From: Thermoplasmata archaeon
GTDB taxonomy: Archaea > Thermoplasmatota > Thermoplasmata > Lutacidiplasmatales > UBA184
Assembly: GCA_021823345.1 (NCBI GenBank)
Contig: JAKAOF010000004.1
Coordinates: 15,055 to 79,054 of the forward strand
DNA length: 64,000 nucleotides
Direction: 5' to 3'
The first letter of the stretch is position 1. Each line of letters starts with the position of its first letter. The notes beneath the pieces are model-generated. The model saw only the letters and a list, made by a program, of their open reading frames with translations, was not told the DNA's origin and did no database searches. The position numbers and the translations under genes were made by a program. Positions 1 to 37,799 of the stretch are shown here, piece by piece.

Positions 1-231
1 GGTAAGTTGGGCCGGCGGGAGGTGGGCGGGAGGCGCGGTCGCGGCCGGAGCCGGTCGAGGGGCCGCCCGAGGACGGCTTGCGGCGGTCGCCGGCGCGGGA
101 CGGGAAGGTGCGCGCGGGGCCGTCGGCCGGGGCAGCGCCTTTCCGCAGGTACTGCAGAACGCGCTCTCGTCGGGGTTCGTGCGGCCACAGCTGGCACAGA
201 CGGTTCCCGAGGGAGCGGCGTTAGCGATCAC
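1..231 (-). CDS. 5' fragment of a pilus-assembly ATPase with an N-terminal zinc ribbon and Pro-rich linker (gene runs off the left edge of the window)
   Basis: My own minus-strand translation from GTG 231..229 gives VIANAAPSGTVCASCGRTNPDESAFCSTCGKALPRPTAPRAPSRP... (CxxC...CxxC then Pro/Ala-rich). It is colinear with the N-terminus of the locus-2 ATPase (MMASCYNCGASIPPASRVCPHCNAP...). The GTG overlaps the TAG stop of the upstream gene (TAGTG), matching the coupling seen in locus 2. The ATPase identity is inferred from synteny only. Confidence 0.4.
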   Translation of the reverse strand, partial: MIANAAPSGTVCASCGRTNPDESAFCSTCGKALPRPTAPRAPSRPAPATAASRPRAAPRPAPAATAPPAHLPPAQLT

Positions 232-1040
232 TAGCTGCCTCCCTCGTCGGGCACGGGTTCGGGGGGGCGTTCGATCGCGCTCTGGAAGGACACGCGGAGC
301 AGAGCGTCCATCTGCAGGAGACGCTCGGAGATGACCTCGAAGTCCGAGGCGGTGGCCGAGAGGCAGCGATCGCATCCCGGGTCCCGGTTGCCCTGGGAGA
401 GGGCCTGCGCCTTATGTCGAAGGTCTTGGTCGAACGCGCTGAACCCCGAAACGAGGGTGCGGTTCATGGTGGGGAACATGGCCCGCGGGTTGTACGGGCA
501 GTTCGGGCAATCGAGATGCTTGATCGTACGGAGGATGGCCGCCCGCTCGTTGCGGAGGTGGCGGGCGATCTCGGCGGCGTTCTTGGGCCCGTTCACTCGG
601 ATGCTCGGGTCCGTGGAAAGGAGCGGCCCCGGGAACGCGCCGGGTCCGGAGGACATCGCATCGAGCTCGGCGATGACGCCGTCGACCTCCCCGTCCGGGA
701 AGACCAGTCCGGCGACATGGGGGCGTGGGGCCCGCAGGGAGAACTGTTCGATGAGCTTCGTCAGCGAGACCAGCATCTTGAGGAAGCGGACCGAATCCCC
801 GACGTATTGGCGCTCCATGGCCCCGGTGATCGTGATGCTGTCCACATAGGGTTCGGTCGAAAGGATGTTGGTCACGACGGCCATGCACTGCGAGTTGAGG
901 ACCCCCGAGGGCCCCTCGCACGCGGCGCATTTGAGTACCAAGTTCGTCGACCGTCCCTCGGACTTGAGCTCGTAGGAGAACTGGGGGAGATGGTTCGACC
1001 CCGGCCCTCGGTCTTCCTTAGATGGTTTTCCCTTCGTCAT
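231..1040 (-). CDS. Cys-rich conserved hypothetical protein (4 CxxC-type pairs); paralog of 33692..34702; leading cytoplasmic gene of pilus locus 1
   Basis: 269-aa ORF. The N-terminus FSYELKSEGRSTNLVLKCAACEGPSG aligns with FEYEVRTEGNSVNLIVKCESCEGPDG of 33692..34702. The C-terminal DCPNCPYNPRAMF...GCDRCL aligns with NCPNCAFNPKNMY...ECLRCL. ATGA start/stop overlap with the upstream gene. Normal amino-acid composition, not GC-artefact-like. Confidence 0.7.
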   Translation of the reverse strand: MTKGKPSKEDRGPGSNHLPQFSYELKSEGRSTNLVLKCAACEGPSGVLNSQCMAVVTNILSTEPYVDSITITGAMERQYVGDSVRFLKMLVSLTKLIEQFSLRAPRPHVAGLVFPDGEVDGVIAELDAMSSGPGAFPGPLLSTDPSIRVNGPKNAAEIARHLRNERAAILRTIKHLDCPNCPYNPRAMFPTMNRTLVSGFSAFDQDLRHKAQALSQGNRDPGCDRCLSATASDFEVISERLLQMDALLRVSFQSAIERPPEPVPDEGGS

Positions 1041-2782
1041 GCTGCTTCCCCCCTCCGCTGCTCCACGCTTCTCCAGATCACGAACACCACGACTCCCGCG
1101 ACCACGACCCCGATGGCGCCATACTCCAGGATCTGGAACGGGTCGGAGGCCTCCGGTGGGGAGGCTGTTTGGACGACCACCACCGTGGAGGTCGATGTTC
1201 GGGCCCCCGCGAAGGCGGATATCGTCACGGTGACCGAGTAGTTCGTGGAGAAGGAGAGTCCTCCGATCGACAGCGGACCGGGGCTCGCGGAGGAGAAGGA
1301 TTGCGGAGCGACCGGGTTGCCGCTCCCGGGGGTCAACGGCGCGATGTTGAGGGTGAGGCCCGTGAACCCGGGGATCTCACTGGCCACGGTCCAGTCGACG
1401 GAGATGCCGGCGGTGGAGGCCCCGACGGATGGAGCGATCGACGTGGCGGACACCACGGCCGTGGTCGGGGTAGGGATCCCAGTGTCCGGCGCCATGGTAA
1501 GCTCCACCGGGGAGCTCGAAAGCTGATACGCCTGACCGATGGCGAGCGTCGCCTCGTTGGCCGAGAAGGTGACGGTCTGTATGGTGCTCGAGGTCGACAA
1601 CTGCCGGTAGGCGGCGGAGTAGCTCTGGGGCATTCCCGGGTAAAGGTAGAACCAGCCCACCTGGTCGGTCGACCACGACACCTCGAAGTATCCAGGCGAC
1701 TCCTCGGCCAGGATCGCGCTCGTGGGCGCGGACGGGAACGTTGCGGACCACGTGACCCCGAAGGAGCTGCACCCCGAGCTTCCGGAGGCGTTGAGGTAGT
1801 TCACGCGCGCGCTCGAGAGCGTCAACACCTCGCAGCCGCTCGCCGAGGCGGAGATCGACTCCCCGTCGGAGAAGTAGTTGCTCGTGTTGGAATATTCCTG
1901 CTGGTGGGAGGCGACCGTGGCCGCGTAGAATCCCGAAACGCCGATGGCGAACATGTGAGAGCCGTCCGCGGAGACCACGGCGTCCCTCAGGCTGGTCGCG
2001 GGTCCCGGGTTGGGGGATCCCCCGAGGGGGTCCCAGACACCCGTGTAGCCGGCCGACTGGCCACCGGAACCTTGGTTCCCCGAGTAGACGAAGATCTGCG
2101 AATTGCCGTTCTCATCGTTCGATCCGACGACGAACCAGCTCCCGTCCTGGTCCATGGAGACGCTGACGAGGTTCTCCCCCGTCTCCACGTTGTAGAAGTG
2201 GAGGTTTGCCCCGGAGGCGGTCGTCGTGAAATAGGACACGTTGAACCCCGGAAGGCTCGAGTTGGGGTCCGTGAAGTGACCGATCACCACGAAGGCGTTC
2301 CCATCCTCGGAGAACTGGGCGTTGGTCACGAACGCCTTCACATGGGAGTTGTCCCCCAGGAAACCCTGGGCGGTCCAGAGCGGGGGGGCGTTGGACGGGC
2401 TCGAGATGGTGTAGAGGTAGACCGAGTTGTTGACCGTGATGAGTATCTCAGGGACCCCGGCCGGACCGGTACCGGACATCGAGACGGAACTGGCGTTGCC
2501 CGGCAGGGGCCAGCTCGAGATCAGGTTCCAGGGGGTCGTGGAGAACAGATAGGCATGGTCGAGGCTGGAGGTCGCGGTCACGTACTCGCCGTTCGGGGTC
2601 GTCGCGAGATGGGAGATGCCGGAACCGTCCGGAGTCGTGTAATTGTCGAGGGACGGGGTCGTCACGGCCGGGTGGATGGCCGGAGCGGCGTCCGGGATGG
2701 AGGCGGCCGTCGCGACCGACGAGGTCGAGCTGAGCAGCAGCGGAAGAAGGAGCGTGAGGGCGAGCAGGGGAAGCGCCCTCAT
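1037..2782 (-). CDS. Secreted Ser/Thr/Asn-rich surface protein with N-terminal signal peptide and C-terminal TM anchor; paralog of 34709..36628
   Basis: Start at the internal Met MRALPLLALTLLLPLLLSSTSSVATAAS (signal peptide), sharing ATGA overlap with the stop of the pilin gene. Many NxS/T sequons. C-terminal hydrophobic segment GAIGVVVAGVVVFVIW followed by RSVEQRRGEAA. Block TPNGEYVTATSSLDHAYLFS is homologous to AGYVTAVSSSDILYLFNS in the locus-2 protein. Confidence 0.7.
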   Translation of the reverse strand: MRALPLLALTLLLPLLLSSTSSVATAASIPDAAPAIHPAVTTPSLDNYTTPDGSGISHLATTPNGEYVTATSSLDHAYLFSTTPWNLISSWPLPGNASSVSMSGTGPAGVPEILITVNNSVYLYTISSPSNAPPLWTAQGFLGDNSHVKAFVTNAQFSEDGNAFVVIGHFTDPNSSLPGFNVSYFTTTASGANLHFYNVETGENLVSVSMDQDGSWFVVGSNDENGNSQIFVYSGNQGSGGQSAGYTGVWDPLGGSPNPGPATSLRDAVVSADGSHMFAIGVSGFYAATVASHQQEYSNTSNYFSDGESISASASGCEVLTLSSARVNYLNASGSSGCSSFGVTWSATFPSAPTSAILAEESPGYFEVSWSTDQVGWFYLYPGMPQSYSAAYRQLSTSSTIQTVTFSANEATLAIGQAYQLSSSPVELTMAPDTGIPTPTTAVVSATSIAPSVGASTAGISVDWTVASEIPGFTGLTLNIAPLTPGSGNPVAPQSFSSASPGPLSIGGLSFSTNYSVTVTISAFAGARTSTSTVVVVQTASPPEASDPFQILEYGAIGVVVAGVVVFVIWRSVEQRRGEAA

Positions 2783-3459
2783 GCCCACACCCCGAGCACG
2801 ACGGAGATCGGGCTCGCACCCCCGGCGGGGCCGGGGACGGTCTCGGACGAGGAATAGATGGTGCCCGTGGTCCCGGTCGCATCGAACCCCATGAACACGC
2901 ACGCGGAAGAGATGGTGCAGGGAGACACCGGAGTGGAAGCGTTCTGATATTCGAGGTAATACTCCGCGAAGGTCTGGGGGTTGAGGCTCACCGTCGATCC
3001 CATGGCAACCTGAGACGCGGTATTATTTATCACGTACCCCGCCCACCCCGGAGTGTCGAGGAGGTGCTCGAGGCTGGCCCGTGGGCCGGCCCCGGTCAAC
3101 GATTCGAGAAGGCTCAGGTGCAAGGCGACCAGCTGGGCCATGCTGTAGTCGTATACCGTACCCGTCTCCCAACCGGGGTTCAACGCCTGGCAGGGGTCGT
3201 TCGGGACGGGCGACCCCGAACTCCCCACGCAGAGCGTGGCGTTCGGGGCCGTGGCCGAAAGGAAGCTCTGAAGGGCATCGGCCGCGTAGGTCGTTCCCCC
3301 GAGGTTCCGCTGCTCGACGATCGGGCTCACGGAAACCATGGCGTACAGGAACAGCGTGGCCACGATGAGCAGGGGGATGAAGAGCACGACGTCAAAGGCG
3401 GCCACCTCACCCCGGCGACCCCGGCGGAACATCGACTTCCGACCGCTGATCCGCCGCAT
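2779..3459 (-). CDS. TadE-like type IV pilin (class III signal peptide)
   Basis: N-terminus MRRISGRKSMFRRGRRG|EVAAFDVVLFIPLLIVATLFLYAM: basic leader, Gly, then a TadE-like hydrophobic helix with acidic residues near the cleavage site. Homologous to the N-terminus of 36616..37182 (VHRRFRGRRGQVAIVDGIVF). Start could be the internal Met (3432). Confidence 0.65.
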   Translation of the reverse strand: MRRISGRKSMFRRGRRGEVAAFDVVLFIPLLIVATLFLYAMVSVSPIVEQRNLGGTTYAADALQSFLSATAPNATLCVGSSGSPVPNDPCQALNPGWETGTVYDYSMAQLVALHLSLLESLTGAGPRASLEHLLDTPGWAGYVINNTASQVAMGSTVSLNPQTFAEYYLEYQNASTPVSPCTISSACVFMGFDATGTTGTIYSSSETVPGPAGGASPISVVLGVWA

Positions 3460-3460
3460 G

Positions 3461-3964
3461 TCAGTCCCAGATCTCCACCATGAGCGTGGCTGTGTGATAC
3501 TCCCCGTAGGGAACCCCAGGGAACCAGATGTCCACCGTCGTCTCGGAGGTGACGAGGCCCTGGGTCAATCCGTTGAGGGTCTTGGGCGGCGCCCCGGTCT
3601 CGATGATCCGTGGTTGGTTCAGCCAGGCGTGGGGGTACGAAGAGACGTCGGTGATCACGACCCGGAAGTCGTACGCCGGGTGGAAATCGTAGGTGATGTT
3701 CGACGACGTCAGGTTGACCACCTTGAAGACGTCGAACACCCCGACCTCGCCCTGGTAGGTCAAGTTGGAATATCCCCGGAGGTCCTGGAGGAAGAGGCTC
3801 GCCTGGTCGGCGAAGGTCTCGTTCTGTTGGCGCTTCTCGAAGGTATTGAGGCCGGAGAAGAGGGCGGCGAAGAAAAGGAACAGGGCCGTGATCACGATCC
3901 AGGCCGCTGGTACCTCTTCGAGGAAACCGGCGACCCCCCGGCGTCCCATGCGGTGCGACATCAA
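3461..3964 (-). CDS. TadE-like type IV pilin (class III signal peptide)
   Basis: MMSHRMGRRG|VAGFLEEVPAAWIVITALFLFFAALF, close to the RSHRG|VAGFFEEFPVLIVVLAALLL N-terminus of 37173..37688. 167 aa with a globular C-terminal part. First gene of the locus-1 operon. Confidence 0.7.
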   Translation of the reverse strand: MMSHRMGRRGVAGFLEEVPAAWIVITALFLFFAALFSGLNTFEKRQQNETFADQASLFLQDLRGYSNLTYQGEVGVFDVFKVVNLTSSNITYDFHPAYDFRVVITDVSSYPHAWLNQPRIIETGAPPKTLNGLTQGLVTSETTVDIWFPGVPYGEYHTATLMVEIWD

Positions 3965-4685: not shown

Positions 4686-4714
4686 TTCCGCGCCCCGCCC
4701 CGGGACGGTAGGGA

Positions 4715-7700
4715 GTGAAGCGGAGGCTCTCCCGACAAGACGGAAGGGTCCCGTACTCCCTGGTGGCACTGGTCGTACTGAGCAGTATCTTCACGCTGTC
4801 GGTCTACTTCGAGCAGGTCGCGCTCTCGACGACCTCGCAGTCCACCTATGATGTCCCCGGGATGACCCAGATGGGGATCGACCGGGCCGAGTCCGAGATC
4901 TCCGCAGTGGCCCAGCAGGACCTGATGAACGTCGAGGTCTCGCTGCTGGGTGCCGGTGCCAATCCGCAACTCAACCTGTTGAACCAATCGCTCAACACCG
5001 AGTTCACGGCCTCGATGGCCTCCCTCGGTTTCTCCACGCCCCAGGGCCTCGTGGTGGACAACGTGGTGATCCGGGCGACCTCCTGGGGGATCAATGCGAC
5101 CTTCTCGGAGGGGACGACGGCGGACGTCGTGCCACACGTGGGCCTCCAGACCGGAACGGGCGTACCCTTGCTTCCCCTGGCCTCGCAGGTGAATTCCACG
5201 AATTTGACCTCCTACGCCAGCACGGAGCTCCCGTTGTACCCCATGGCCGTCGGCCACGTCATGCTCACCGCCTTGGACGGCAACAGCGGAGAGCTGCTCT
5301 CCACGCCGTATGACTTCTCCGTGAGCGTGCAGAGCGAGATCGGACTGCTCGAGGCGCAGAGCGCCGAGTTCTCGGACGCCTCCTGGGGGTCGGGGAGCGG
5401 GCTGGCGAAGCTGGTCTCGTACATCCTCACCAGCCTTGCGGAGCTCCGGGCCCTGTCGGGATACGGGTCCGGGGGATATCCCGGGTACCAGGCCGGCACG
5501 GTGATCTCGGGGGCGACGGGGAATTCCATCCTCTCCTCCGCCGATGTCCACGACGCGGAGAGCCTGGCCGTGCTCTTGGAGTCCCTCCGCTATTTCCGTT
5601 CGTTCGACGGAGCGGCGGTGAATTCCCTGTTGAGCAGCCTGCCCCCCGGGCCTTATGAACAATTGCTCGCGCGCTACGTCTTCAACGGCACCATCGATCC
5701 CGCCACGCTCTACCTGCTCTTCCTCGATGCCCAGGGGGGTTGGTCGGACGGTTGGATCTCGAGCGGGGCGGGGCTCGCCAGTGCCATCTACGGGTTTGCC
5801 GACCGGTTCAAGTTCGACCTGCTCCAGCGGTTCTGGGGCAATGCCACGGTGGACCCGACCTTGCTCGAACCCGTGGCGAGTTGGCCCACGGTGCAGATGC
5901 AAGGCATGGGGTTCGCCCAGACCATGCTCCTCACGTGGCTGTGGGACTACGGGAGCTGGCTCGGGGTCACCCAACAGTCCCTGCCGCCCGAAGACTCCAC
6001 GGCCGTGATCCCGCCCATGGTGGGGAGTGCCAGTGACGGGTTCGGGAACGTCTGTACCTACGTGCTCTTCCCCGGGGGTACCATCGAGACCAGCAATCCC
6101 GGGGTGCCCAACCTCGCGGACCTCATCCTCGGTACGCCGCAGGTCGAGCAGATCTCGGTCCCCGGCAACCCGAACTACAACGTCTATCTCGCCCCGAACA
6201 ACTACCAGGTGTGGGAGAACGTTTCCATCGACCAGCCCTCCGCGCCCTACGCCTACCTGAACGATGCCGGGAACGGGCTGCCGAACGACTGGTGGATCGA
6301 CTTCAACGAGAACTCGACCTACATCACGACCCACGACTCCTTGCTGCTCCTGTTCAACCCGATGGACACGAACCCCTACGATCCCGGGGCCTTCGACCGC
6401 ACCCTGCACTCGGTCCTCGTGGACCTCTCGAACTCGATGCAGCACAAGTCCTCGACCGCCTCGCTCGTGTCCGACAAGGGCTATCTCGACTATGTGGGGC
6501 TCACCGGGGACAACGTCGGGGGGAACAGCACGATCACCGGGACGGGGATGCCGGACCTGTCGACCACCACCGGGAGGAACACCGCCCTGAACACGAGCTA
6601 TTCCTACCTGACCCAGGGGACGTCCAGCATGTTCGGGGGACCGTTCTCGCGGGCACTCTCCAACTTCAGCGTAGCTTCCGGGAACCCGGCGAACCGGACA
6701 TCTTGGTGGGTCAACGGAGCGTCGCACCCCGCGCTCGCCGGCTCGGGAAACCCCACCTCGACGGTGAACGGGGGCGTCAACTGGACGATGTCGGCGATCT
6801 CGAGCTACCCCGCCAGCGAGTGGTTCCAGATGCTCTACACCCTGTACTACGGTTCCGGCGGGACGATCCCGGCGGCCCCTCCACCCCTGTCGCAGATCAA
6901 TTACAACAACATGGACCAGTTGGTCTACAATATCCTGAGCCCCGGGGTCGAGCAGACGCCCCCCACGGGGTATCAGCAACCCAATTTCGCCGTCGATGTC
7001 ATGAACGAGACGTTCATCTCCGTCTATTGCTGGATCACCGGTGACCAGAGCAATTACGGGAACAACATCGGGTGCGGATCGGAGAACGGAGGACCCTTCT
7101 GTCCGAATGGGGGCGGTGGCTTCTTTGGAGGCGGTTGCCTGGGGGACACCGCGAACTCTCCCTTCAATCCCCAGGCCAACGGCAATTTCTTCACGGGCGC
7201 CTGCAACGGGAACAACCAGAACCCGGCCTTCCAACGGGCCATCAACAACTGGTACCTCACGGGCACGGGAGGTCTCGCCAACATGTGGACCCTCGTGGGG
7301 AACTCGGTGATGCAGTCCCTCCAGGGAGGAGTGGACCAGATCCACCAGTTGCTGCAGAGCTCCTGGCAGAACGTATACAACAACACCGGGAATGCGGACT
7401 GGTCGGGTCAGAACTTCACGAACTGGATCCTCCGGTACATCGCTCCCCCGATCCTCAACGACACGAGCGCGATGGGCACCCCCGGCGGGTGGCTGAACCA
7501 GATCTACCGCTCCACGGACCAGTGGCTCCAGACGGGCACCAACCTCACGGGTACGGTCACGAAGATGGACCTGAACCGAGGCCGGCCGTACTCCTTCTCC
7601 CTCGGCAATGCGAGCGTGGAAGGGGCGGACGGCCAGATCTTCAACGAGAGCCTCCGGAACATGACGTTCGCCTTCACGGGCGGCACGCTCGACTGGAGCG

Positions 7701-16833: not shown

Positions 16834-16839
16834 GAAGGC

Positions 16840-27792: not shown

Positions 27793-27805
27793 AGCTGAGC
27801 CAGCC

Positions 27806-28381
27806 TCACGGGCAACTGGGCCACGCATACGTATATCCGGGCAAATAGATAAGGGGTAGGTACTCCGCCGCCCCATCGACCCACACTTCCTTCAGCGTGA
27901 GCGAGAACGGCATTCCGGCCGTGATGTAAAGGCAGCTCTGATCGATCGTCTGGAGCTGTTTGTAATCGAGGTAGGGAACCTTCGTCACGTTCTGGAAATC
28001 CGACCACTTGAGGAGATAGACGGGGTTCGAGAAGGAGCTCCAGCTGCTCACGTACCCGGCGGAGACGTTCGCCGCCACCAGGATGACGTCCCGGGTGAAC
28101 GCGAGGCTGTAGGGGATCGTGCGGTACGGGAACGGCGTGGCGCCGGCGTTCGCCGGGAGCGAGACGGAACCGGTCCCGTTGAACGAGAAGCTCTCCGTCA
28201 CGTTCCCGGAGAGTCCCTCGACCCGGTTGATGTGGCTCGAGATCGTGGTCACGACCGACTCCATCGCCAGGTTCACGCTGTAGCTCGAGGCATCGACGTC
28301 CATGACCGCCGTGACGGTGCTCACCATCGCGACCGCTGCGATGCTCGCCACAAAGATGGACATCACCCAGTCGAGCAGCAT
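27806..28381 (-). CDS. Membrane-anchored pilus-associated protein (N-terminal TM plus extracellular beta-rich domain; minor pilin or FlaF/G-like)
   Basis: Start at the internal Met MLLDWVMSIFVASIAAVAMVSTVTAV. Its ATG overlaps the upstream TAA (TAATG). NxS/T sequons. Sits in the pilin block of locus 2. Confidence 0.55.
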   Translation of the reverse strand: MLLDWVMSIFVASIAAVAMVSTVTAVMDVDASSYSVNLAMESVVTTISSHINRVEGLSGNVTESFSFNGTGSVSLPANAGATPFPYRTIPYSLAFTRDVILVAANVSAGYVSSWSSFSNPVYLLKWSDFQNVTKVPYLDYKQLQTIDQSCLYITAGMPFSLTLKEVWVDGAAEYLPLIYLPGYTYAWPSCP

Positions 28382-28989
28382 TAGAACGACGCCACCTCGA
28401 TGAAGTAGACCAGGGAGTCCCCCGAGGGGATCGGGGAGGGCGGGAGGGACGCGCAGCTGTACTCCCCCGCGGCCGAACCGGTGCCCGAGACCGTCCAGCA
28501 CTTGGTGAAGGAGAGGGTGCTCGAGCTCGTGAGGGTGTACCCGATCCACTGGCCCCGCCAGTGGGTGCCGCAGGAACCTCCGCTGGTGAGGTTCGTCATG
28601 GGGATGGGTCCGGTGCCACTGTCGACGGTCGCGTTGTAGGTGACCCCGCCGGCGAGGGCGTTCACGAAGTACGCGTTCCCGTCCACGTTCTGCGTCGAGG
28701 AGCAACCCCCGTAGAGCGGGCCCCCGATGAGGATGTACCCCGTGGCCTGCCCCGGGACCTGGAGCACGATGCGGGTCCCCGTGGCCCCGGAGAAGGCCTG
28801 GGTGACACTGCTCGAGATCTTGTCGATGGTGGTGCGGGCCTGGACCTGCTGCTGCTCGGAGTCGTAGTAGAGCGCGGCCGCGTAGATGATCGGAAGCATG
28901 ATCGCGAGGATGAGGACGATGATCGTGAGCTCGAGCGGCATCTCGATGACGCCGCGCCGGGACCGCGAAACCGTCGGCCGCCGTTTCAT
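28381..28989 (-). CDS. TadE-like type IV pilin (class III signal peptide)
   Basis: MKRRPTVSRSRRG|VIEMPLELTIIVLILAIMLPIIYAAALYY followed by a globular Ser/Thr/Gly-rich domain with Cys pairs. Confidence 0.65.
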   Translation of the reverse strand: MKRRPTVSRSRRGVIEMPLELTIIVLILAIMLPIIYAAALYYDSEQQQVQARTTIDKISSSVTQAFSGATGTRIVLQVPGQATGYILIGGPLYGGCSSTQNVDGNAYFVNALAGGVTYNATVDSGTGPIPMTNLTSGGSCGTHWRGQWIGYTLTSSSTLSFTKCWTVSGTGSAAGEYSCASLPPSPIPSGDSLVYFIEVASF

Positions 28990-29450
28990 CGGATCACCGT
29001 GCAGGCGGTGGACGCCTGTTCTGCGGACGGCGATCCCCCGAGGGAGGTCGCGGTGTACTGGGCGAGGACGCTCAGGGTCCCGGAGCTCGCATCCGGGGGG
29101 AGGACCGGGGCGATCGGCCCGAAACGGGCCGTCCCGTTCGCCACGGTCGAGCCCGAGAGCGAGAGCCCGAGGCCCGAGACGAGCACGGAGACCCCGGACA
29201 GGGGATGCCCCCGCTGGTCCATCGTGAAGGCGGTCAGCGCCTGGGACTTTCCGAGGAAGAAGAAGCAGGGACTGCTGGCGCCCGTCTGGTCGACGTACGC
29301 GTCGACGCTTCCCAGGTTCGAGCCCTGCGAGTAGGAGAGGTAGGTGTACATCCCCGCGGCGAATCCGCCCACGATGACGAGCGAGACGATGATCTCGAGG
29401 CCCATCCCCTCGAGCGCCCCCCGCCGATGGCCCGCGAACTTCCGTCGCAT
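28986..29450 (-). CDS. TadE-like type IV pilin (class III signal peptide)
   Basis: Only the C-terminal 154 codons of ORF 28986..30818 are coding: MRRKFAGHRRG|ALEGMGLEIIVSLVIVGGFAAGMYTYLSY. The rest of that ORF is an alternative frame of the FlaJ-like gene. Confidence 0.65.
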   Translation of the reverse strand: MRRKFAGHRRGALEGMGLEIIVSLVIVGGFAAGMYTYLSYSQGSNLGSVDAYVDQTGASSPCFFFLGKSQALTAFTMDQRGHPLSGVSVLVSGLGLSLSGSTVANGTARFGPIAPVLPPDASSGTLSVLAQYTATSLGGSPSAEQASTACTVIR

Positions 29451-29455
29451 CGGTT

Positions 29456-31576
29456 TCACGCCCCGTTCGAAGCCAGGAGGGCCACCCCGAATATGGCGGC
29501 CACCACGTAGATGAGACTGGAGATCCACAGGGTGGTCCAGAGCGCTCCGAGGTACCGGACCCGGTCCCCGCTCCATTCGACCCCGGTGGCGAAGTAAAGG
29601 ACGATGAACGTGATCTCGATGAGGTAGACGCCCATCACCAGGAAGAACACCGGAGAGGGCACGATGAGGGCGCCGTTCGCGAGCACGCTCGACAGGAGGA
29701 GGTAGAGCGCTCCCGTGATCCCGATGACCACGGGGGTGAAGAACATGACCGAGCCGCGCATCATGCCGGTCGTCCCCTTGAGCGAGGTCCGGATGTTCTG
29801 GTCGGTGTTCCGGAGCTCCTTGAGGAACTCGGCCATCGGAAGGACGGTCTCGGCGATGGCCTCGGGACCCTTCTTCGAGGCCTCGAGGAGGGCCCGCATG
29901 GCGACCTTCATCGGCCGGGAGGGGTACTGGTCCATGACGCCCGGGCCGCGGGTCGATCCGAAGAGGACCTGCTCGGGGGTCTGGCCCGAGAGCTGCATGA
30001 CGTAGAGGATGTGGTTGAAGAACTTCCCCGACTCGGTGCCCTTCGCCCCTTCGGCCGCCTGGCGGATGGCGTTGTTGAGCGCCACGCCCTCCCCCATCTG
30101 GCTGGCGACCTGGAAGAAGGTGTCGGGGAACTCCTGCTCGAGGTGATAGAGCGCGCGGTGACGCTTCTCGAGGAAGTGGATCCGCAGGAACGCCACCACC
30201 GAAAGCGCAACGCTGACGCCCAGCACGAGGAAGGCGGTCCACGTCTCCTGGAGCACCGCCCCCGCGTACGCGTTGAAGTACCCGAGCCCCGCAAAGATCC
30301 CGATGGAGGCGATCCCGCCCCCGATCAACGCGCCGACCAAGGCGGCCTTGGGGAGCGCCCATTCCTCCCGCCGGTTGCCCTGGAGCACGCGGGCGGGGTC
30401 GAGGGTACCGGGCCGCTTGTTCAGGATCTGTACCGCATAGATGTAGGCGATGAGGGGAAAGACCACGGTCATGATCGTGATGAATCCCACGTTCGTGGCC
30501 AGGAACTCGCTCGAGGAGACCGGGCTCGCCGAGCTGCTCCCGCCCCCGGAGAGGGAGATCGTCCCCCCCAGGTTGGCCAGGAAGATCATCGGCATCATCG
30601 CTCCGATGACCATCGGGAGGAGCACCCCGAGCCCGAAGAAGATCGTGGTGGGGCCAGAGAGCGAGGCGGCGAACTCGTCGATCTTCCGGCGCGTGCCGGA
30701 CAGGATGATATCGTGGGCCTTCTCCAAGTGCCGGGCGCGCCCCTCGGGGGACTTCTCCGACACCCCCATCTTGAGCGCCTGGAGCGAGCGCATGAAGTCC
30801 TCGTTCCAGTTCCCCCATTCGTTGGCGAAGGCCATGTAGGAACGCTCGAGGGTCGGCTGCTTGCGCGTCACGGTGTCCCAGTGGATCTTCCCGAGCGCCT
30901 CCCCGAGGTTGCCTCCGACGTTCTCCGCGGAGAACTGGACGGCCTGGTGAAGACTGGGGTTGAGCCGCAGCGACATGGCCATGTAATGGATGGCCTCGGG
31001 GGCGCGCCCCAGCGTCTGGATGCGCAGGCGGCGCGCCAGCATGCCGGGGTAGTTGTAGATGTACAGGTAGAGCATGAGCGGAACGAAGAGGACCGACAGC
31101 AGCAAGAGGACGACGAAGGCCGACATGAGCACCGGCGTGGCCAGGAGGAGCCCGATGACGACGGCGGCCATGGCGATCATGACGAGCACGAGCGTGCCCA
31201 CGGCGGCGTAGTGGATCTCCGTGGGGGTGACCTCGAGGCCGGCGAAGTAGATCTCCCGCTGGAAGCGGCGGCGGGTGATGAGCTCCTCGAGCGAGTCGAG
31301 TCGCTTCTGGAGCCGTTCGAGCTTGCGTTCCTCGCGGTCGCGCACGGCGGCCGAGGGCATTTCGATGAGCACGCGGCGGTTGAACTCTTCCTCCTGCTGA
31401 CGGAGGTTCAGCCGTACCTTCTCCCGCTGCTCCTCGAGCTTCTCCTGGCGACGGGAGGGATTGCCGAGCGAGATGAAGATCCCGCCGAGGAACCGGGAGT
31501 AGTTCTCGAACCAGGCCCCCGACTTCCCCTCGTGGACCGCCTTGAACTCTGCGGCGTGGTCGGGATCAGCCGCCAT
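29456..31576 (-). CDS. FlaJ/TadC-like polytopic membrane platform protein of the type IV pilus/archaellum family
   Basis: 706 aa. Cytoplasmic N-terminal coiled/charged domain, then multiple TM helix bundles. Position directly downstream of and overlapping (11 nt) the FlaI-like ATPase is diagnostic of the platform protein. Confidence 0.8.
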   Translation of the reverse strand: MAADPDHAAEFKAVHEGKSGAWFENYSRFLGGIFISLGNPSRRQEKLEEQREKVRLNLRQQEEEFNRRVLIEMPSAAVRDREERKLERLQKRLDSLEELITRRRFQREIYFAGLEVTPTEIHYAAVGTLVLVMIAMAAVVIGLLLATPVLMSAFVVLLLLSVLFVPLMLYLYIYNYPGMLARRLRIQTLGRAPEAIHYMAMSLRLNPSLHQAVQFSAENVGGNLGEALGKIHWDTVTRKQPTLERSYMAFANEWGNWNEDFMRSLQALKMGVSEKSPEGRARHLEKAHDIILSGTRRKIDEFAASLSGPTTIFFGLGVLLPMVIGAMMPMIFLANLGGTISLSGGGSSSASPVSSSEFLATNVGFITIMTVVFPLIAYIYAVQILNKRPGTLDPARVLQGNRREEWALPKAALVGALIGGGIASIGIFAGLGYFNAYAGAVLQETWTAFLVLGVSVALSVVAFLRIHFLEKRHRALYHLEQEFPDTFFQVASQMGEGVALNNAIRQAAEGAKGTESGKFFNHILYVMQLSGQTPEQVLFGSTRGPGVMDQYPSRPMKVAMRALLEASKKGPEAIAETVLPMAEFLKELRNTDQNIRTSLKGTTGMMRGSVMFFTPVVIGITGALYLLLSSVLANGALIVPSPVFFLVMGVYLIEITFIVLYFATGVEWSGDRVRYLGALWTTLWISSLIYVVAAIFGVALLASNGA

Positions 31577-33695
31577 GGCCCGTGGCCCACCCCTTGAGGG
31601 ACTCCTTCAACCAAGCCTCCCACTGAGAAAGGACCGAGGCGTACACCCCGCGCTTGGTCCCGCCCTCGGTGGCGCGCTCCATGATGTCCCAGAAGGCGGC
31701 GTTCGACTTGCCGACCCACTCGGCGCTCACGAGCTCGGGGCGCTTGGCACGTCGCGAAAGCTCGACGAGACGCTCCCGGTAGGTCGCGCGGAGCTGGATC
31801 TGCTCGAGGGCCTCCTCGTATCGGATCCCCCAGGAGTCGGCGATGTGCTTGATGCGTTCAGAACCCTCGAGATAGGCCGCCGTTGCCTTGAGGGTGTCCG
31901 TCGCCTCGTCATAGACGAGCAGTTGACGGAAGGTGCCCGGCTCGCGGGCCGTCTTCGAGAGCTCGCTCACCTCCATGATCCGGCGCTGCTGGTTCCGCAC
32001 GGAGCCCCCGGGCGAGGTCAGCCCCGCCACCACGACGATGTCCGTGGCCTGGAAGCTCACGGCCGGGATGCCGATGTCGTGGACCACCCGCTCGAAGACG
32101 GCCTTGGCCGTGTTGCCGTGGATGGTCCCGAGCACGGAGCTCCCCGCGGTACCTGCCCGCATGGCCTCGTAGAGCGTCCGCGCCTCCTCGCCGCGCACCT
32201 CCCCGAGCACGATGGCACTTTCCCCCAGCCGGAGGGAGACCTTGAGCGCCTCGTTGGCGGTCATCTCGACCCCCTGGCCCCCGACCGCCGACCGGGTGAA
32301 CAGCGTCTGGACCTTGTAGCCGAGCTCCCGCATCTCGGCGCTGGGGAGCTCCAGCGTGTCCTCGATGGTGAGGATGCGCTGGTTCTTCGGGAACTCGAGC
32401 ATGAGGGCGCCCGTGAGGGAGGTCTTCCCGGCGCCTCGAGGACCGGCCACGAGGATCGTGGAGCGTCCATCGATGAGGAAGTTGAGGAGCCCGGCCGTGA
32501 GCGGGTTGATGGAGTTCGAGCTCATGAGCTTGAGGAGCGTCCACGGGTCGGTCGCGTGACGGCGCAGGGCCATGGCGATCCCGTGGGGGGACAGCGGCTT
32601 GCCGATGGCGGTGACCCGGATGTTGTATTCGCGGAGGTCCGTCTCGAGCACCGGCATCGCCTCCGAGAACGGCTTTCCGCTGTCGAGCAAGAGCCGGGAG
32701 AGGAGCGCCTCCGCCTCCTCGTCGGTGACCGTCACATTGGTGATGCACTTGTCCCCGACCGCGCCCGAGGCGAATCCGCCGATCCGGAGGTGGATGGGGT
32801 TCTCCGAGGCGGGAGCGTCGATGTACAGGTCTTGCAGGTGGGGATCGGAAAGGAGGATCTCCAGGGCCCCGAGCCCGACGAGGTGCCGGGTGAGGATCTC
32901 GGCAAGTTCGCCGAACCGCTGGACCCGTGATGCCGCGGACCCGGAGAGCTGGATCCCCGTCTCGCGGGCGACGCGCTGCATGAGCCGCTGGGCCATCTCC
33001 CGGACCACCTGCTTCGTGTGCGAGAGGTTCTGCAGGGCGAGGCGCTTCGGGTAGTATTCCATCAGCTCATCCCTCGTGAGGTGGAGCAGCTCGACCTCGT
33101 CCTTGCTGAGCTTGTAGTCCGCGATCTCGAGATGATAGAGGGTATCGATCTCGTTGGGGATGTGGTAGATCGTGACCTTGCTCGCCCCGAGGTTGTAGGT
33201 GGTGAGCTTGTCCCCTTTCTCGGGGGGATGCGGGTCGACCCAGCATCCGGAGAACCCAGGGCGTGTGAGGGTGCTCCGCCGTAGCGTGTTGGTCAGGTCG
33301 AGATTGAATGCCCGGGGGACCGCATCGAGGTTCTTCAGGATCCCGGCGAGGACCCCGGGACGCTCCTCCACCGGGAGCGCCATCGGCGAGGCCAGGACGA
33401 GCATCTTCGTCGCATTGGCGCTGGTCCAGGGAAGGGGAGCGTACGGACCGATACCGCCCGCCCCCGGTGCCTGGGGGTTCGGGACGGGGAGGGCCCAGGG
33501 ATTGCCGCCAATCCCGGCGGTGGCGGGGAAGAGGGGGCGGGTCGGAGGCGGAGGAAAGGGAAACGCCGACTCGGTCGGGGAGGACTCGAAGGCGTTCGAG
33601 GTGGCCAGGGGGAAGGCGATGGGGGCATTGCAGTGGGGGCAGACCCGGCTCGCCGGCGGGATCGAGGCACCGCAGTTGTAGCAGGAGGCCATCAT
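31566..33695 (-). CDS. FlaI/TadA/VirB11-family secretion ATPase with N-terminal zinc ribbon and Pro-rich linker
   Basis: Start at MMASCYNCGASIPPASRVCPHCNAP (ATGA overlap with the upstream stop). Walker A VAGPRGAGKTSLTGALMLEF. Walker B/His-box AIVLGEVRGEEARTLYEAMRAGTAGSSVLGTIHGN. 710 aa, larger than typical FlaI because of the N-terminal extension. Confidence 0.85.
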   Translation of the reverse strand: MMASCYNCGASIPPASRVCPHCNAPIAFPLATSNAFESSPTESAFPFPPPPTRPLFPATAGIGGNPWALPVPNPQAPGAGGIGPYAPLPWTSANATKMLVLASPMALPVEERPGVLAGILKNLDAVPRAFNLDLTNTLRRSTLTRPGFSGCWVDPHPPEKGDKLTTYNLGASKVTIYHIPNEIDTLYHLEIADYKLSKDEVELLHLTRDELMEYYPKRLALQNLSHTKQVVREMAQRLMQRVARETGIQLSGSAASRVQRFGELAEILTRHLVGLGALEILLSDPHLQDLYIDAPASENPIHLRIGGFASGAVGDKCITNVTVTDEEAEALLSRLLLDSGKPFSEAMPVLETDLREYNIRVTAIGKPLSPHGIAMALRRHATDPWTLLKLMSSNSINPLTAGLLNFLIDGRSTILVAGPRGAGKTSLTGALMLEFPKNQRILTIEDTLELPSAEMRELGYKVQTLFTRSAVGGQGVEMTANEALKVSLRLGESAIVLGEVRGEEARTLYEAMRAGTAGSSVLGTIHGNTAKAVFERVVHDIGIPAVSFQATDIVVVAGLTSPGGSVRNQQRRIMEVSELSKTAREPGTFRQLLVYDEATDTLKATAAYLEGSERIKHIADSWGIRYEEALEQIQLRATYRERLVELSRRAKRPELVSAEWVGKSNAAFWDIMERATEGGTKRGVYASVLSQWEAWLKESLKGWATGHGG

Positions 33696-34702
33696 GGCGC
33701 AGGTGTCCCTCCCGCGGTGGCGGCGGCCCGGCGTCCCGCGGACTTGGACACGGTGGAAACGATCTCCCCCACGTGCTGGTTCAACAGCTCGAACTCGCTC
33801 GTGGACATCCCGAGGCACCGCAGGCACTCCTTCTCGGGTCGGCCCTGCTGAAGCTGGGCCACCTTGCCCCGGAAACTGGGCAGGAAATGATCGAGACCGA
33901 CCTTGAGCAGGTCATTGAGCTCGAGGTACATGTTCTTGGGGTTGAAGGCGCAGTTCGGACAATTGAGATACCGGAGCTTTCGGACGAAGGCCTGCGGATT
34001 GGACCGGATGCGCTTCGCCCGCTCCTCCAAGGGTTCTTCCGGGGAAACGGCGGGCGCCGGGGCCGGGCCGGATGGAGCATTCGGGGACGGACGGAACGCC
34101 GGGTTCGCTCCGGGGGGAGCATAGTAGCCCGGGGGGTTCGGCATGCCCGGTTGCGGGACGGCGTTTGCCGGGGGAGGGAACTGCCCGTAGGGGCGCTGCG
34201 GGGGAGGGGTCGGCGGAGCCGGGGCGGGCTGGGGCGGCGGTTGGTTCTCCCGTTCGGCCTCCTCCTCCGCCTGGCGCGTGCGTTCCTCTTCCGCTTGCCG
34301 CTCGAGCACCTGGACGGTGTCCTCGAGGTTCCCATCGGGAATGGCGACCCCGTCCACGAAAGGCACCGGGGGTCGGGCCGCCATCTGTTCGAGCAGCTTG
34401 TCGAGCTGGAAGAGCTGCCGGAGCGCCTCCACCGTCGAGCCCGTGTACTGTCGCATCACCTTGCCGGTGATGGTGATGAGGTCGACGTAGTACTCGTTGG
34501 TCATCGCCTGCATGATGGCGGCCCGGCAGTAGGGATCTGCGATGCCGTCCGGGCCCTCGCAGGACTCGCACTTCACGATGAGGTTGACCGAATTGCCTTC
34601 GGTCCTCACCTCGTACTCGAAGGGGGGTGGAGTGATCGGCTCGGCCGGAAGTTCCGGAGGCGCCTGAGGGTTCGTTCGGGGAGCCGGATTGGAGGACTTC
34701 AT
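33692..34702 (-). CDS. Cys-rich conserved hypothetical protein; paralog of 231..1040; first cytoplasmic gene before the pilus ATPase in locus 2
   Basis: 336 aa with the same Cys blocks as 231..1040 (KCESCEG, PYC, NCPNC, ECLRC). Carries an extra Glu/Ala/Pro-rich insertion (RQAEEERTRQAEEEAERENQPPPQPAPAPP). Confidence 0.7.
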   Translation of the reverse strand: MKSSNPAPRTNPQAPPELPAEPITPPPFEYEVRTEGNSVNLIVKCESCEGPDGIADPYCRAAIMQAMTNEYYVDLITITGKVMRQYTGSTVEALRQLFQLDKLLEQMAARPPVPFVDGVAIPDGNLEDTVQVLERQAEEERTRQAEEEAERENQPPPQPAPAPPTPPPQRPYGQFPPPANAVPQPGMPNPPGYYAPPGANPAFRPSPNAPSGPAPAPAVSPEEPLEERAKRIRSNPQAFVRKLRYLNCPNCAFNPKNMYLELNDLLKVGLDHFLPSFRGKVAQLQQGRPEKECLRCLGMSTSEFELLNQHVGEIVSTVSKSAGRRAAATAGGTPAP

Positions 34703-34708
34703 CGAACG

Positions 34709-36628
34709 CTAAGCCCCGCCGAAGCCGGGCGGTAGCTTGGTGGAGGTGGACCGGCGGCTCTTGGTCTTCTTCGAGGTTCCCCGGGCCCGCTTGCCGAAGA
34801 GGCTCCCCGTTCCGCCCCGGCCGGAGCCTTCCTCGGTGGCTGCCCGCTTCTCGGGGAGGGTCATCACCATGGCGAGCCCGGTGAAGAGGAACCCCGCGGA
34901 GAGCACGCCTGCGAACACCGGATAGCTCCAGGCGAAGGGGTCCGGAGAGGGAGGCGGGGGGAAGGTCGTCACGTTGAGCTCCGCGAACGAGGAGAACAGC
35001 CCCCACCAGGTCTCCACGGTCACCTGCACGAGGTAGGTCTGGTCGGCATGGAGGCCGGTCATGTTGAGGTAGCTCTGCGAAGCGGGAAGGGCCCCGTTGG
35101 CCTGGGGTCCGTCGGCCGGAGAGAGCGTGAGATAGGCGACCGGGGAACCGGGGAGCGCAAGGAGGTCGGTCGGACTCCAGGTCAACAGGAAGCTGTTCGA
35201 GGTGACCTTGGAGGCCGAGAGCATCACGGTGGGCGGCGGGGAGGGGCCGTAGTCGAAGATGACGTCCAGGTAGCCTTCCGCACTACCGCCCCGGGCACTC
35301 ATCCCGACCGCGGTGACGACCAGGTTCGAGGAGCTCGAGGCCGAGAGCGCCGTGGACGTGAGCTGGACTGTCCGGTACGGGACCGGGTTACCCACGGGGT
35401 AGCCAGGGACGTAGAAGTACGCCACCGTGCTTCCCGAGGAACTGGCGCTCACGTACTCCCCGTACGAGGCATTGGACGGGTTGAGGGAGAGGTAGAGCAT
35501 CGGGTAGGTGCCGGTGGTCATGCTCCATATCGGCTGCTCGTATCCGTCGGGAGCCGGGGCGGAAGAGTAGTTGAACCCATAGATGGTGTTCCCCCCGCCG
35601 TCGACGGCGAGGCGAGAGGCATTGTAGCTAAAGGACGCCAACTGGCTCCCGGCAAAGGGAGACCCCGGGTTCACGTTGGTGTCGTTCTCCGCGACCGTCG
35701 CGCGGACGTTCGCGGCCTCGTCGATCCAATAGCCGTCCGAACCCACCTGGATGACGGTGCTCCCGTCCGGGGACACCAGGGCCTGGGTCAGGGTCCCCGA
35801 CGGAGGGCTCGTCTCTTGCTTGAGCGGCGGCGGGGACCCGGAGTACTTCTCCGCGACCACGTAGGTGTTGATCCCGTCTTGGAAGGCGAAGAGGAGGTAG
35901 CTCCCGTCGTTGGTCATGCTGAGATCGATCGTGCTCATCGAAGACCCGGAGCCGGAGGATTGCGAGTAGTTCCAAAGTTCCACGCCGGAGATGCCATCAA
36001 GATAGCTGAGCCACACTCCGTAGTCGGAGGTGGAGGTGCCGCTCACCTCGTACGTGCAGGCCACCGCGACCACCTGGGCGGAGCCCGAGATGGCGATCGA
36101 ACCCACCTGGAGGCTCGTGATGTTGTAGCCCGCGGCGTGCCCCCCGTACTTGGCCAGGATCTCGTTGGCGGGGCTGTACGACCAGAGGGGGGTCGCGTTC
36201 GGATAGGCATAGGCGTAGGCGGTGCCGCCGACACCGATCATCACGTAGCTCGAGGTGCCGACCTTCCCGTTGATGACGGGGGAGGCCGCCGAGATGGCCA
36301 GCGTGCCCCAGTCGACGTTGGTCCCCAGCTGCCACATGGCCTGCGGGTTGTTGGAGGAGCTGTTGAAGAGGTAGAGGATGTCCGAGGAGGAGACCGCGGT
36401 CACATATCCTGCGTTCCCCGAGACCTCCACATCCTTGACATCCGAGGTCCCCACGGCGTAGGTCCATCCAGAGGGAAGCGCGGGGCTCGATGCCGGATGG
36501 CGATGGGGGACCGAGGCGGTCGGAGCGTGGGCCCCGCTCGCTCGAGCGTCCACCGTAGCGATGCCGCTAATCACGAGGGAGATCAATACCGCGACGGCGA
36601 CGACTGGGACGTTCCTCAGGTGTTCCAT
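34709..36628 (-). CDS. Secreted Ser/Thr-rich surface protein with signal peptide, FN3/Ig-like C-terminal region and C-terminal TM anchor; paralog of 1037..2782
   Basis: Start at MEHLRNVPVVAVAVLISLVISGIATVDARA. C-terminal TM SYPVFAGVLSAGFLFTGLAMVM plus a basic tail. Same position relative to the pilins and the Cys-rich gene as its locus-1 paralog. Confidence 0.7.
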   Translation of the reverse strand: MEHLRNVPVVAVAVLISLVISGIATVDARASGAHAPTASVPHRHPASSPALPSGWTYAVGTSDVKDVEVSGNAGYVTAVSSSDILYLFNSSSNNPQAMWQLGTNVDWGTLAISAASPVINGKVGTSSYVMIGVGGTAYAYAYPNATPLWSYSPANEILAKYGGHAAGYNITSLQVGSIAISGSAQVVAVACTYEVSGTSTSDYGVWLSYLDGISGVELWNYSQSSGSGSSMSTIDLSMTNDGSYLLFAFQDGINTYVVAEKYSGSPPPLKQETSPPSGTLTQALVSPDGSTVIQVGSDGYWIDEAANVRATVAENDTNVNPGSPFAGSQLASFSYNASRLAVDGGGNTIYGFNYSSAPAPDGYEQPIWSMTTGTYPMLYLSLNPSNASYGEYVSASSSGSTVAYFYVPGYPVGNPVPYRTVQLTSTALSASSSSNLVVTAVGMSARGGSAEGYLDVIFDYGPSPPPTVMLSASKVTSNSFLLTWSPTDLLALPGSPVAYLTLSPADGPQANGALPASQSYLNMTGLHADQTYLVQVTVETWWGLFSSFAELNVTTFPPPPSPDPFAWSYPVFAGVLSAGFLFTGLAMVMTLPEKRAATEEGSGRGGTGSLFGKRARGTSKKTKSRRSTSTKLPPGFGGA

Positions 36629-37182
36629 AGTGCGAGTGTGACCCCGATCGGACCGTTCCATCCCGGAGGAGAAGGTAGGCCGATCTGCTGCACATACAAG
36701 TCTTGGGGGGAATATGTAGATTGCGCCCCCATTTCGAGGTTTGCACCGGCGTGGGAGGCCGGCGAAATGACCGTGAGGTTGAAGTACGCGAACGTGCCGC
36801 GGGTCAAGTTCTCGAGCTCCCAGTACAGTGCCCACCCCATGGCACCGGTCCCCATGAGGAGCTTGGGGGTGGTCTGGCCCCCGGCGATGAGGTAGACCGC
36901 CTCCGTGAGAAGGCGGGCCCCGGCCTGGTCCTGCTCGGTGACCGTACCCGAGTGCGTCGGGAACTTCGACAGCGGGAAGGTGGACTCGAGCATCACGTTC
37001 AGGGTCGAGGACGAGTAGGCTTGGCCGGTCGAGTTCTGGCCCGGGGTGGAGACCGGGGCCAGGAAGACGTCCATGAGGAAGAAGAAGGCGAGGAGCAAGA
37101 GCGAGAGGAAGACGATCCCGTCGACGATCGCGACCTGGCCCCGCCGGCCCCGGAACCGGCGGTGGACGGAATTCAGCTCCAC
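36616..37182 (-). CDS. TadE-like type IV pilin (class III signal peptide)
   Basis: In-frame GTG start giving VELNSVHRRFRGRRG|QVAIVDGIVFLSLLLLAFFFLMDVFL, homologous to the locus-1 pilin 2779..3459. Overlaps the upstream stop (CTGA). Confidence 0.6.
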   Translation of the reverse strand: MELNSVHRRFRGRRGQVAIVDGIVFLSLLLLAFFFLMDVFLAPVSTPGQNSTGQAYSSSTLNVMLESTFPLSKFPTHSGTVTEQDQAGARLLTEAVYLIAGGQTTPKLLMGTGAMGWALYWELENLTRGTFAYFNLTVISPASHAGANLEMGAQSTYSPQDLYVQQIGLPSPPGWNGPIGVTLALWNT

Positions 37183-37688
37183 ACGCTCACCACCACGAGG
37201 GCGTCGTGGTATTCCTGGTCCGTCACGAAGATCGTGACGGGGCTCTGCGCCACGAAGATCCCGTTGGATAGCCGATATCCCGGCGGGGGGATGCAGGGGG
37301 TCGGCGTGCCCGTCGAGTAGCTCTGTTGGCAACTGTCCACCGTGCGGTTGTAATGGATATGGAACGGGGAGAGGTCGATGATCTGCACCTCGTACCCGCT
37401 CGGGGGATGCAGATCGTACGACACATTGGCGTACGTCAGGTTCGCGATCTTGGAGGACTGGAAGAGCCCCTTCTGGTTCTCGTAGGTGAGGTTCTGATAT
37501 CCCAGCACCGCCCCCAGCAGGGTCTCGGCCTGCTGGGAGAACGCCGCGCTCTGCTGCTTCTGGGAGAGCGTCTCGAAGGCGCCGACCGCAGTGGCCAAGA
37601 ACAGCAACAGCGCTGCGAGGACCACGATGAGCACGGGGAACTCTTCGAAGAACCCCGCGACCCCCCGGTGGGACCGTCTGAATCTCAC
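37173..37688 (-). CDS. TadE-like type IV pilin (class III signal peptide)
   Basis: In-frame GTG start giving VRFRRSHRG|VAGFFEEFPVLIVVLAALLLFLATAVGAFETL, nearly identical in its N-terminus to locus-1 pilin 3461..3964. The ORF's first Met (37793) would give an implausibly long leader. Confidence 0.6.
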   Translation of the reverse strand: MRFRRSHRGVAGFFEEFPVLIVVLAALLLFLATAVGAFETLSQKQQSAAFSQQAETLLGAVLGYQNLTYENQKGLFQSSKIANLTYANVSYDLHPPSGYEVQIIDLSPFHIHYNRTVDSCQQSYSTGTPTPCIPPPGYRLSNGIFVAQSPVTIFVTDQEYHDALVVVSVWS

Positions 37689-37799
37689 GTCAGAAGTATG
37701 GGCGGCCCCGTCCTTAAGGTTTGCCAGAATTCCGCGGCGAACGACCTCGACGGGAGTTCTCCTACCCACCCCGGTCCTGCCTTCCGGGAGCACGGGTCG

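Follow-up and report, generated by a model that had tools for sequence, protein, structure and literature searches.

Archaeal type IV filaments serve in adhesion, biofilm formation, DNA exchange, nutrient capture and motility, and knowledge of them comes mostly from a few cultured models. In the euryarchaea, systems of 'clade 2' usually occur in at least two diverged copies per genome; AfGspE is a typical clade 2 ATPase, and in subclade 4F the N-terminus of the ATPase frequently has a Cys-rich domain of variable sequence (Makarova et al. 2016, PMC4858521). In many published cases the duplication is limited to the ATPase/TadC module. Formal membership in clade 2 is set by an ATPase in the arCOG01817 branch and by the signature minor pilin arCOG02911, and 'System 2' has been described as having a single platform protein, N-terminally extended ATPases, pilin-like proteins with a class III signal peptide (SPIII) as well as leaderless ones, membrane proteins and large adhesin-like proteins (Sivabalasarma & Albers 2026, bioRxiv 10.64898/2026.04.22.720090). 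Several diverged type IV filament (TFF) loci per euryarchaeal genome are already documented; the gene set that we describe here is uncatalogued. It lies in a 64,000-nucleotide stretch from a Thermoplasmata archaeon (GenBank assembly GCA_021823345.1, contig JAKAOF010000004.1, positions 15,055 to 79,054; hereafter the window). We consider it probable that a complete cassette for the assembly of a TFF (archaeal type IV pilus-like) is present in the window as two ancient paralogs, each with an additional small pilin gene (P) and a gene for a giant surface protein (G).

Examination of the open reading frame (ORF) listing and of third-position GC (the window is 65.8% G+C) delineates two gene arrays on the minus strand, which by their sequences are TFF systems of an archaeon. 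The archaeal host, already recognized in a first-pass annotation of this DNA, is borne out by the relatives of these genes: all those with an organism named in the record come from uncultured Thermoplasmata, Thermoplasmatota or 'Euryarchaeota archaeon' metagenome-assembled genomes (MAGs). Locus 2 (26905-37688) consists of ten close-set genes, designated a to j: two pilin-like genes (a, b), a secreted anchored protein (c), a Cys-rich protein (d), the secretion ATPase (e), the platform protein (f), three further pilin-like genes (g, h, i) and a Zn-ribbon membrane protein (j). Locus 1 (1-3961) is present in the window as a to d and the start of e; e begins at 231 with a GTG that overlaps the stop codon of d by one nucleotide, and the ORF exits the window, as had been noted for a Zn-ribbon protein at this position. 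Because adjacent genes either share 1-13 nt or stand no more than ~13 nt apart, each ten-gene array is read here as one operon. The ORF calls agree with the gene positions first assigned to both loci, with one adjustment in locus 2: j most likely starts at 27792 and not at 27876, because its ortholog in a related locus (L005) has an in-frame stop upstream. The spacing of the loci, put earlier at ~30 kb, measures 33.7 kb from a to a.

The first-pass annotation had claimed that a to d of the two loci are homologous in pairs, and by BLASTP they are, at 25-44% identity with E-values from 4e-5 to 1e-31: 35% for a (E 2e-26), 27% for b (E 4e-5), 25% for c (E 3e-10), and 44% and 34% for d (E 1e-31 and 2e-16). 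The remainder of locus 1 was reached through its d protein, an exact copy of which in public assemblies led to a 56.8-kb ENA contig (L001) that is near-identical to the window over the part compared. Past the window edge, locus 1 on L001 encodes a 665-aa Zn-ribbon T2SSE ATPase (the full-length e, L001 10810-12804), a 701-aa polytopic platform protein and three pilin-like proteins; its last gene encodes a membrane protein with a C-terminal Zn ribbon, and the order from e to j is that of locus 2. The ATPase and platform genes whose absence after locus 1 was to have refuted the first-pass reading are thus both present. Compared with locus 2, the L001 proteins are 51% identical for e (E 0), 39% for f (E 3e-174), 33% for g (E 1e-3, C-terminal part only), 35% for h (E 1e-19), 27% for i (E 2e-20) and 35% for j (E 5e-4, Zn ribbon only). 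The paralogous filament loci with the same gene order therefore stand, with 10 of 10 genes pairing one-to-one, and this shared order excludes chance as the source of the likeness. L001 10810-11050 is not an exact copy of window 1-240, since at least one residue of the ATPase linker is changed (RAPSRP versus RTPSRP); with d identical and this linker different, strains closely related to the host therefore occur in several samples.

At the DNA level, the sole match between locus 1 and locus 2 is 79 bp at 73%. Because the proteins are 25-51% identical while the DNA is essentially unrelated, the locus pair is an ancient duplication, neither recent nor an assembly artefact. Two further pairs of paralogs accompany the loci: P1 and P2 are 38% identical and both are related to g, and G1 and G2 are 27% identical over ~1,600 aa (E 6e-117).

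A scan of GTDB species genomes with the d alignment found five loci in four Thermoplasmata MAGs. By tblastn with all cassette proteins, the a-j order is kept in L005-L009, the exception being b, which was undetected in L006; a further type, L013, also carries an a-j cassette, with an f that is 45% identical and with G and P divergent from a-j. One MAG, YS4.bin60, has both paralogous cassettes ~34 kb apart on a single contig, as in the window. P and/or G adjoin the cassette in L006, L008, L009 and L013; specifically, P keeps the position that it has in the window in L008, L009 and L013, and G is adjacent in all four. Neighbour-joining trees of e and of f, rooted with more distant homologs, have the same topology with 100% bootstrap, in which window locus 1, FK3.bin56 and YS4.bin60-B together are sister to a group that joins REEB18 and clean282 on one side and window locus 2 and YS4.bin60-A on the other. 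The agreement between the two trees indicates that the duplication took in the whole cassette and predates the split of these lineages, and that the parts of the cassette have been co-diverging since. A distant Thermoplasmata locus, L012, has four genes only: d, e, f and a leaderless i-like gene. Its ATPase is 858 aa long and has a Zn ribbon and a Pro-rich linker of ~270 residues (region L012 7432-8400). Because L012 keeps just these four genes, its content suggests that d-e-f-i is a conserved core and that the pilin set is exchangeable. To date, all sightings of this cassette subtype are from uncultured Thermoplasmata/Thermoplasmatota.

The ATPase e of locus 2 (31566-33695, minus strand) begins with an N-terminal Zn ribbon and a Pro-rich linker, the part that remains of locus 1 e in the window (1-231, minus strand; Pfam Zn_Ribbon_1, E 2e-6). 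It matches PF00437 (T2SSE) at 74.9 bits against a cut-off of 24.9, which makes it a T2SSE-type secretion ATPase; the profile search proposed with the first-pass annotation thus succeeds for locus 2, and the locus 1 copy was found on L001. Its translation contains a Walker A motif (GPRGAGKTS), an Asp box (EDTLEL), a Walker B motif (IVLGEVRG) and a His box (TIHGN). The best solved relatives are AfGspE (2OAP, 5.5e-28), CpaF (4.8e-22) and FlaI (3.4e-18). Against NCBIfam, e scores 127 bits with the TadA family (cut-off 373) and gives a partial match of 115 bits with FlaI (cut-off 550); no NCBIfam equivalog cut-off is reached.

For the platform protein f (locus 2, 29456-31576, minus strand; 706 aa, polytopic), the corresponding search with FlaJ/T2SSF PF00482 fails for the window copy and succeeds for its relatives: 14 of 17 full-length homologs (31-90% identity) match, with a best E of 1.2e-9. 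Because of these homologs we assign f to the platform family, as a diverged member of the T2SSF/FlaJ/TadC type. The f family profile found no true match among PDB sequences, only coiled-coil or noise. In their source records the relatives of f are named TadB or 'Flp pilus assembly protein TadB' (JGI), or 'type II secretion system F family protein'.

Protein d (locus 1, 231-1040; locus 2, 33692-34702; both minus strand) is predicted to be a cytoplasmic Cys-rich protein of two domains, and its AlphaFold 2 (AF2) model has a predicted local distance difference test (pLDDT) score of 89. It is encoded directly 5' of e at every locus, with overlapping stop and start codons. An exhaustive search with d yielded 124 representatives, of which the named ones come from Thermoplasmata or Thermoplasmatota; a comparison of the family profile with PDB sequences gave coiled-coil or noise matches only. 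In 6 of the 124 representatives, which are related protein clusters, d is fused N-terminally to a T2SSE ATPase. This suggests that d is a partner or regulatory module of the ATPase, cytoplasmic, Cys-rich and probably Zn-binding. In one further representative (P0133, from a Thermoplasmatota MAG), the fusion partner of d is a KaiC-like ATPase, with a long coiled coil between the two. ATPases of the KaiC/FlaH-like kind are known to accompany archaeal type IV pilus and archaellum loci, and this fusion hints at a shared docking function. The fusion link between d and the ATPase is a new observation.

The pilin-like proteins a, b, g, h and P share a leader with two or three basic residues, a Gly or Ala at -1, a motif that contains acidic residues and then ~20 hydrophobic residues. 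The leaders end in RRG↓VAGFLEEVP in locus 1 a (3461-3961) and HRG↓VAGFFEEFP in locus 2 a (37173-37688), in RRG↓EVAAFD in locus 1 b (2779-3459) and RRG↓QVAIVD in locus 2 b (36616-37182), in RRG↓ALEGMGLEIIV in locus 2 g (28986-29450) and in RRG↓VIEMPLELTIIV in locus 2 h (28381-28989), all on the minus strand (arrows mark the predicted cleavage site). Across the seven cassette copies compared, conserved patterns emerge: R-R-[GA]↓VAGF[FL]EE.P in a, RRG↓[EQ].A..D in b, R-[GA]↓.LEG..L in g and P, and RRG↓V.[ED].P.EL in h. The class III-like leaders that the first-pass annotation ascribed to its pilin candidates are therefore conserved as N-termini with a basic leader, a Gly or Ala and a hydrophobic helix, and a, b, g, h and P are candidate class III-type pilin subunits with predicted cleavage. 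When the window was scanned in six frames with a FlaFind-like motif, nine hits resulted, eight of them in these genes and one a C-terminal anchor; the other 26 kb had none. In each candidate the predicted site is followed by 159 residues or more.

AlphaFold modelling of the pilins had also been proposed; in the AF2 model of the locus 2 a protein (pLDDT 83.7), a 46-residue N-terminal helix (17-62) is followed by a globular alpha/beta head. Pilin a also has conserved N-x-S/T sequons, and its family consists of 21 clusters, all named 'hypothetical'; its profile against the PDB gave coiled-coil matches or noise, and no solved pilin was matched. Protein i (locus 2, 27806-28381, minus strand) is leaderless, with MLLDW directly before the hydrophobic helix, and has a positional counterpart in L012. 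Scans of Pfam and NCBIfam returned no match for the pilin-like a, b, g, h and i, for d, or for either giant protein (G1, G2); in the pilin-like set with its orthologs the only weak matches were to Big_1, to DUF7266 (E 1.4e-3, one ortholog) and to DUF7285 (one ortholog). The two DUF matches, which fall in orthologs from L005-L009, might tie part of the pilin set to catalogued families.

Beside each cassette stand P and G. P1 (4128-4685, plus strand) is divergent from locus 1 and encodes a small pilin (RRG↓ALEGVPLYLII...) with an Ig-like head (Big_1, E 1.5e-6); P2, its paralog (21970-22551, plus strand), reads KRA↓ALEGLPLYLII... at the same place. G1 (4715-9349, plus strand) is a giant surface protein of 1,544 aa that begins with a basic leader, G↓RVPYS and a hydrophobic N-terminus, and G2 (16966-21684, minus strand; probable start, the GTG at 21684) is its paralog. 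Neither protein matches Pfam, and G1 has no match in the PDB. We regard G1 as a candidate pilus-associated adhesin. Directly 3' of P2 is a gene for a secreted 969-aa Big_1 protein with a C-terminal anchor (22545-25454, plus strand); an ortholog of it flanks the locus 2 ortholog in L010, and it probably belongs to the system.

The two remaining cassette genes encode surface or membrane proteins. Protein c is secreted and has a C-terminal membrane anchor (locus 1, 1037-2782, with a Sec signal; locus 2, 34709-36628; both minus strand); the locus 2 copy matches fn3 (E 2.8e-5), and fn3 is all that c finds in the PDB. Protein j (locus 2, 26905-27792, minus strand) is polytopic in the membrane, and a Pro-rich linker leads to the Zn ribbon at its C-terminus (Zn_ribbon_3, E 2e-5). 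A Zn ribbon on a long Pro-rich tether is thus found both at the N-terminus of e and at the C-terminus of j, and the two ribbons are weakly alike (36% over 28 aa, E 0.025).

Between the two loci lie 23 kb (the 4-26 kb stretch of the window) that encode large secreted or anchored surface proteins, the exception being a thiolase gene (25489-26859, minus strand; acetyl-CoA acetyltransferase-like). The thiolase gene lies directly 3' of j, where it parts the cassette from the P2, G2 and Big_1 genes, and is probably unrelated housekeeping. The genes at 9738-12713 (minus strand), 22545-25454 (the Big_1 gene above), 43076-45976 (minus) and 49808-51637 (minus) all encode large secreted or C-terminally anchored proteins, with PKD, Big_1, PQQ_2 beta-propeller and DUF835 domains among them. 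A 1,342-aa secreted protein (12805-16833, minus strand) combines PKD with a C-terminal Amidase_6 (putative amidase) domain (E 6e-13). The lineage is thought to lack a cell wall, and an amidase of cell-wall type is thus unexpected; the protein could target neighbouring bacteria. Beyond locus 2, a membrane protein (42085-43017, minus strand) has an N-terminal double CxxC motif resembling a Zn ribbon and a CarboxypepD_reg domain, and in L010 its ortholog likewise lies near that of locus 2, at the corresponding place.

Compared with the described systems, the architecture fits the euryarchaeal clade 2 / System 2, exemplified by the Haloferax PilB/PilC loci and Archaeoglobus AfGspE, better than it fits Tad/Epd; this is a likeness of locus plan, and no formal membership is claimed. 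Specifically, there is a single platform protein, an N-terminally extended ATPase, several SPIII pilins with a leaderless pilin-like protein, additional membrane proteins, large adhesin-like proteins and two or more diverged copies. The closest solved relative of e is the clade 2 protein AfGspE. Despite these similarities, several features set the loci apart from clade 2 / System 2: the ten or so pilin and accessory families have no described Pfam or NCBIfam family; the Cys-rich d, the Pro-tethered Zn ribbons of e and j and the ~1,550-aa G are absent from published accounts of those systems; and the whole cassette is duplicated, pilins included. The Cys-rich module recalls the MA1299-like ATPases of subclade 4F, but here it has a gene of its own, d, and six related protein clusters show it joined to the ATPase; 4F has been described mostly from Halobacteria and Methanomicrobia, whereas the named relatives of d are Thermoplasmata or Thermoplasmatota. 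The Aap pilus of Sulfolobus, an adhesive pilus, is also built with one ATPase and one platform protein, and has an extra Cys/Fe-S accessory protein, AapX; in contrast to AapX, the d profile retrieved no family as widespread. The Cuniculiplasma CdiP pilus (PMC12448462) illustrates that Thermoplasmatales make type IV pili, but it has two ATPases, its platform is split and its pilin genes are remote.

If the cassettes work like the characterised TFF machines with which they share homology, a class III signal peptidase encoded elsewhere would first cut the basic leaders of a, b, g, h and P after the conserved Gly or Ala. The T2SSE ATPase e, as a hexamer, would dock on the polytopic T2SSF-type platform f and use ATP to lift pilin subunits from the membrane into a helical filament, which would be glycosylated and adhesive. 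In this scheme d would be the partner or regulatory module of the ATPase and i a part of the conserved d-e-f-i core, and G, possibly with neighbouring large secreted proteins, would be an adhesin exposed on the filament or next to it. The existence of two cassettes would serve to produce either two distinct filaments or one kind of filament in differing circumstances. We propose, more tentatively and at somewhat less than even odds, that they represent an undescribed, Thermoplasmatota-specific TFF subtype, with the d-e-f-i core, d as a detachable N-terminal domain for regulation or docking of the motor, a pilin set of its own (of which at least one member, a, would have a non-Ig alpha/beta head unlike those of solved archaeal pilins) and ~1,550-aa 'giant pilins' displayed as adhesins.

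Other accounts of these loci are less probable to very different degrees. The first-pass annotation had labelled them Tad/Epd-like and their subunits TadE/TadF-type pseudopilins, that is, a Tad/Flp- or Epd-type (clade 1 / System 1) pilus. Like those systems, the cassettes have an ATPase of the FlaI/TadA/CpaF branch and no retraction ATPase, JGI names relatives of f TadB, and conserved acidic residues close to the presumed cleavage point (+3 for g and h, +6/+7 for a) are reminiscent of the +5 Glu of bacterial and Tad pilins. But four defining features contradict the label, which we now consider quite unlikely. Two platform genes (TadB+TadC or EpdJ-K-like) were not found, every locus having a single gene of ~700 aa; no short pilin ORF of the Flp/EpdE type, recognizable by a class III motif, came out of the six-frame scan of the 64 kb; among the genes of six loci there is neither a TadV/EppA peptidase nor a TadZ/MinD-type ATPase; and no PF07811 (TadE) match was found in the window's pilin-like proteins or in 18 orthologs. 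The 127-bit TadA score also lies far from that family's cut-off of 373. A rotary motility apparatus like the archaellum is more improbable still: it can draw on the partial match of e to the NCBIfam FlaI model, but this falls far under the 550-bit cut-off, and no cassette gene has a Pfam or NCBIfam match to an archaellin or to FlaF/G/H/CDE/X, and we reject it. Least credible of all is that the repeated gene order reflects an assembly or binning artefact or a chance likeness. Nothing speaks for it beyond the source being a metagenome assembly, and the two copies diverge in protein and share almost no DNA similarity, both are syntenic in an independently assembled MAG, and independent contigs from several samples carry locus 1; this explanation too was rejected.

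The alternative that we take most seriously, although we think it unlikely, is that no long pilus is made and that a short TFF structure, resembling the Sulfolobus bindosome or a type II secretion pseudopilus, inserts, displays or anchors G and other large secreted proteins. Each type of cassette has a linked giant protein whose N-terminus is pilin-like, and the stretch between the loci, the thiolase apart, is full of large secreted or anchored proteins. To our knowledge, cultured Thermoplasmatales have no S-layer on their surface. 'Functionalised' TFF machineries with SPIII-bearing cargo have been proposed (bioRxiv 10.64898/2026.04.22.720090). However, each cassette encodes four or five distinct small pilin-like proteins, one of them Ig-like (g/P), as is typical of filament-formers, the leader of G is non-canonical, and the loci have neither an ABC transporter nor a substrate-binding protein linked to them. 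Our preferred reading, two paralogous cassettes for assembly of a pilus-like filament, itself has four observations to contend with. The f protein of the window has no Pfam match of its own. No TadE, class III or archaeal-pilin profile of Pfam or NCBIfam matched any of 28 pilin-like sequences (10 window proteins at E <= 0.1 and 18 orthologs at E <= 1). An A24 prepilin peptidase is absent among the scanned ORFs of the window and within +-10 kb of the loci in L001, L010, L012 and L013. Finally, the N-terminus of G is pilin-like but without the canonical basic residue at -2.

These results overturn nothing that is known of archaeal filaments; the component families are new, and the link between d and the ATPase and the giant proteins with pilin-like N-termini are the most interesting elements. 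The two loci offer a clean natural case in which a whole machine has been duplicated and all of its parts have co-diverged, which bears on the question of which parts must co-evolve. Within it, d stands out as a candidate partner of the motor ATPase that is supported by gene fusions, and the giant proteins may show how archaea that lack an S-layer display very large adhesins.

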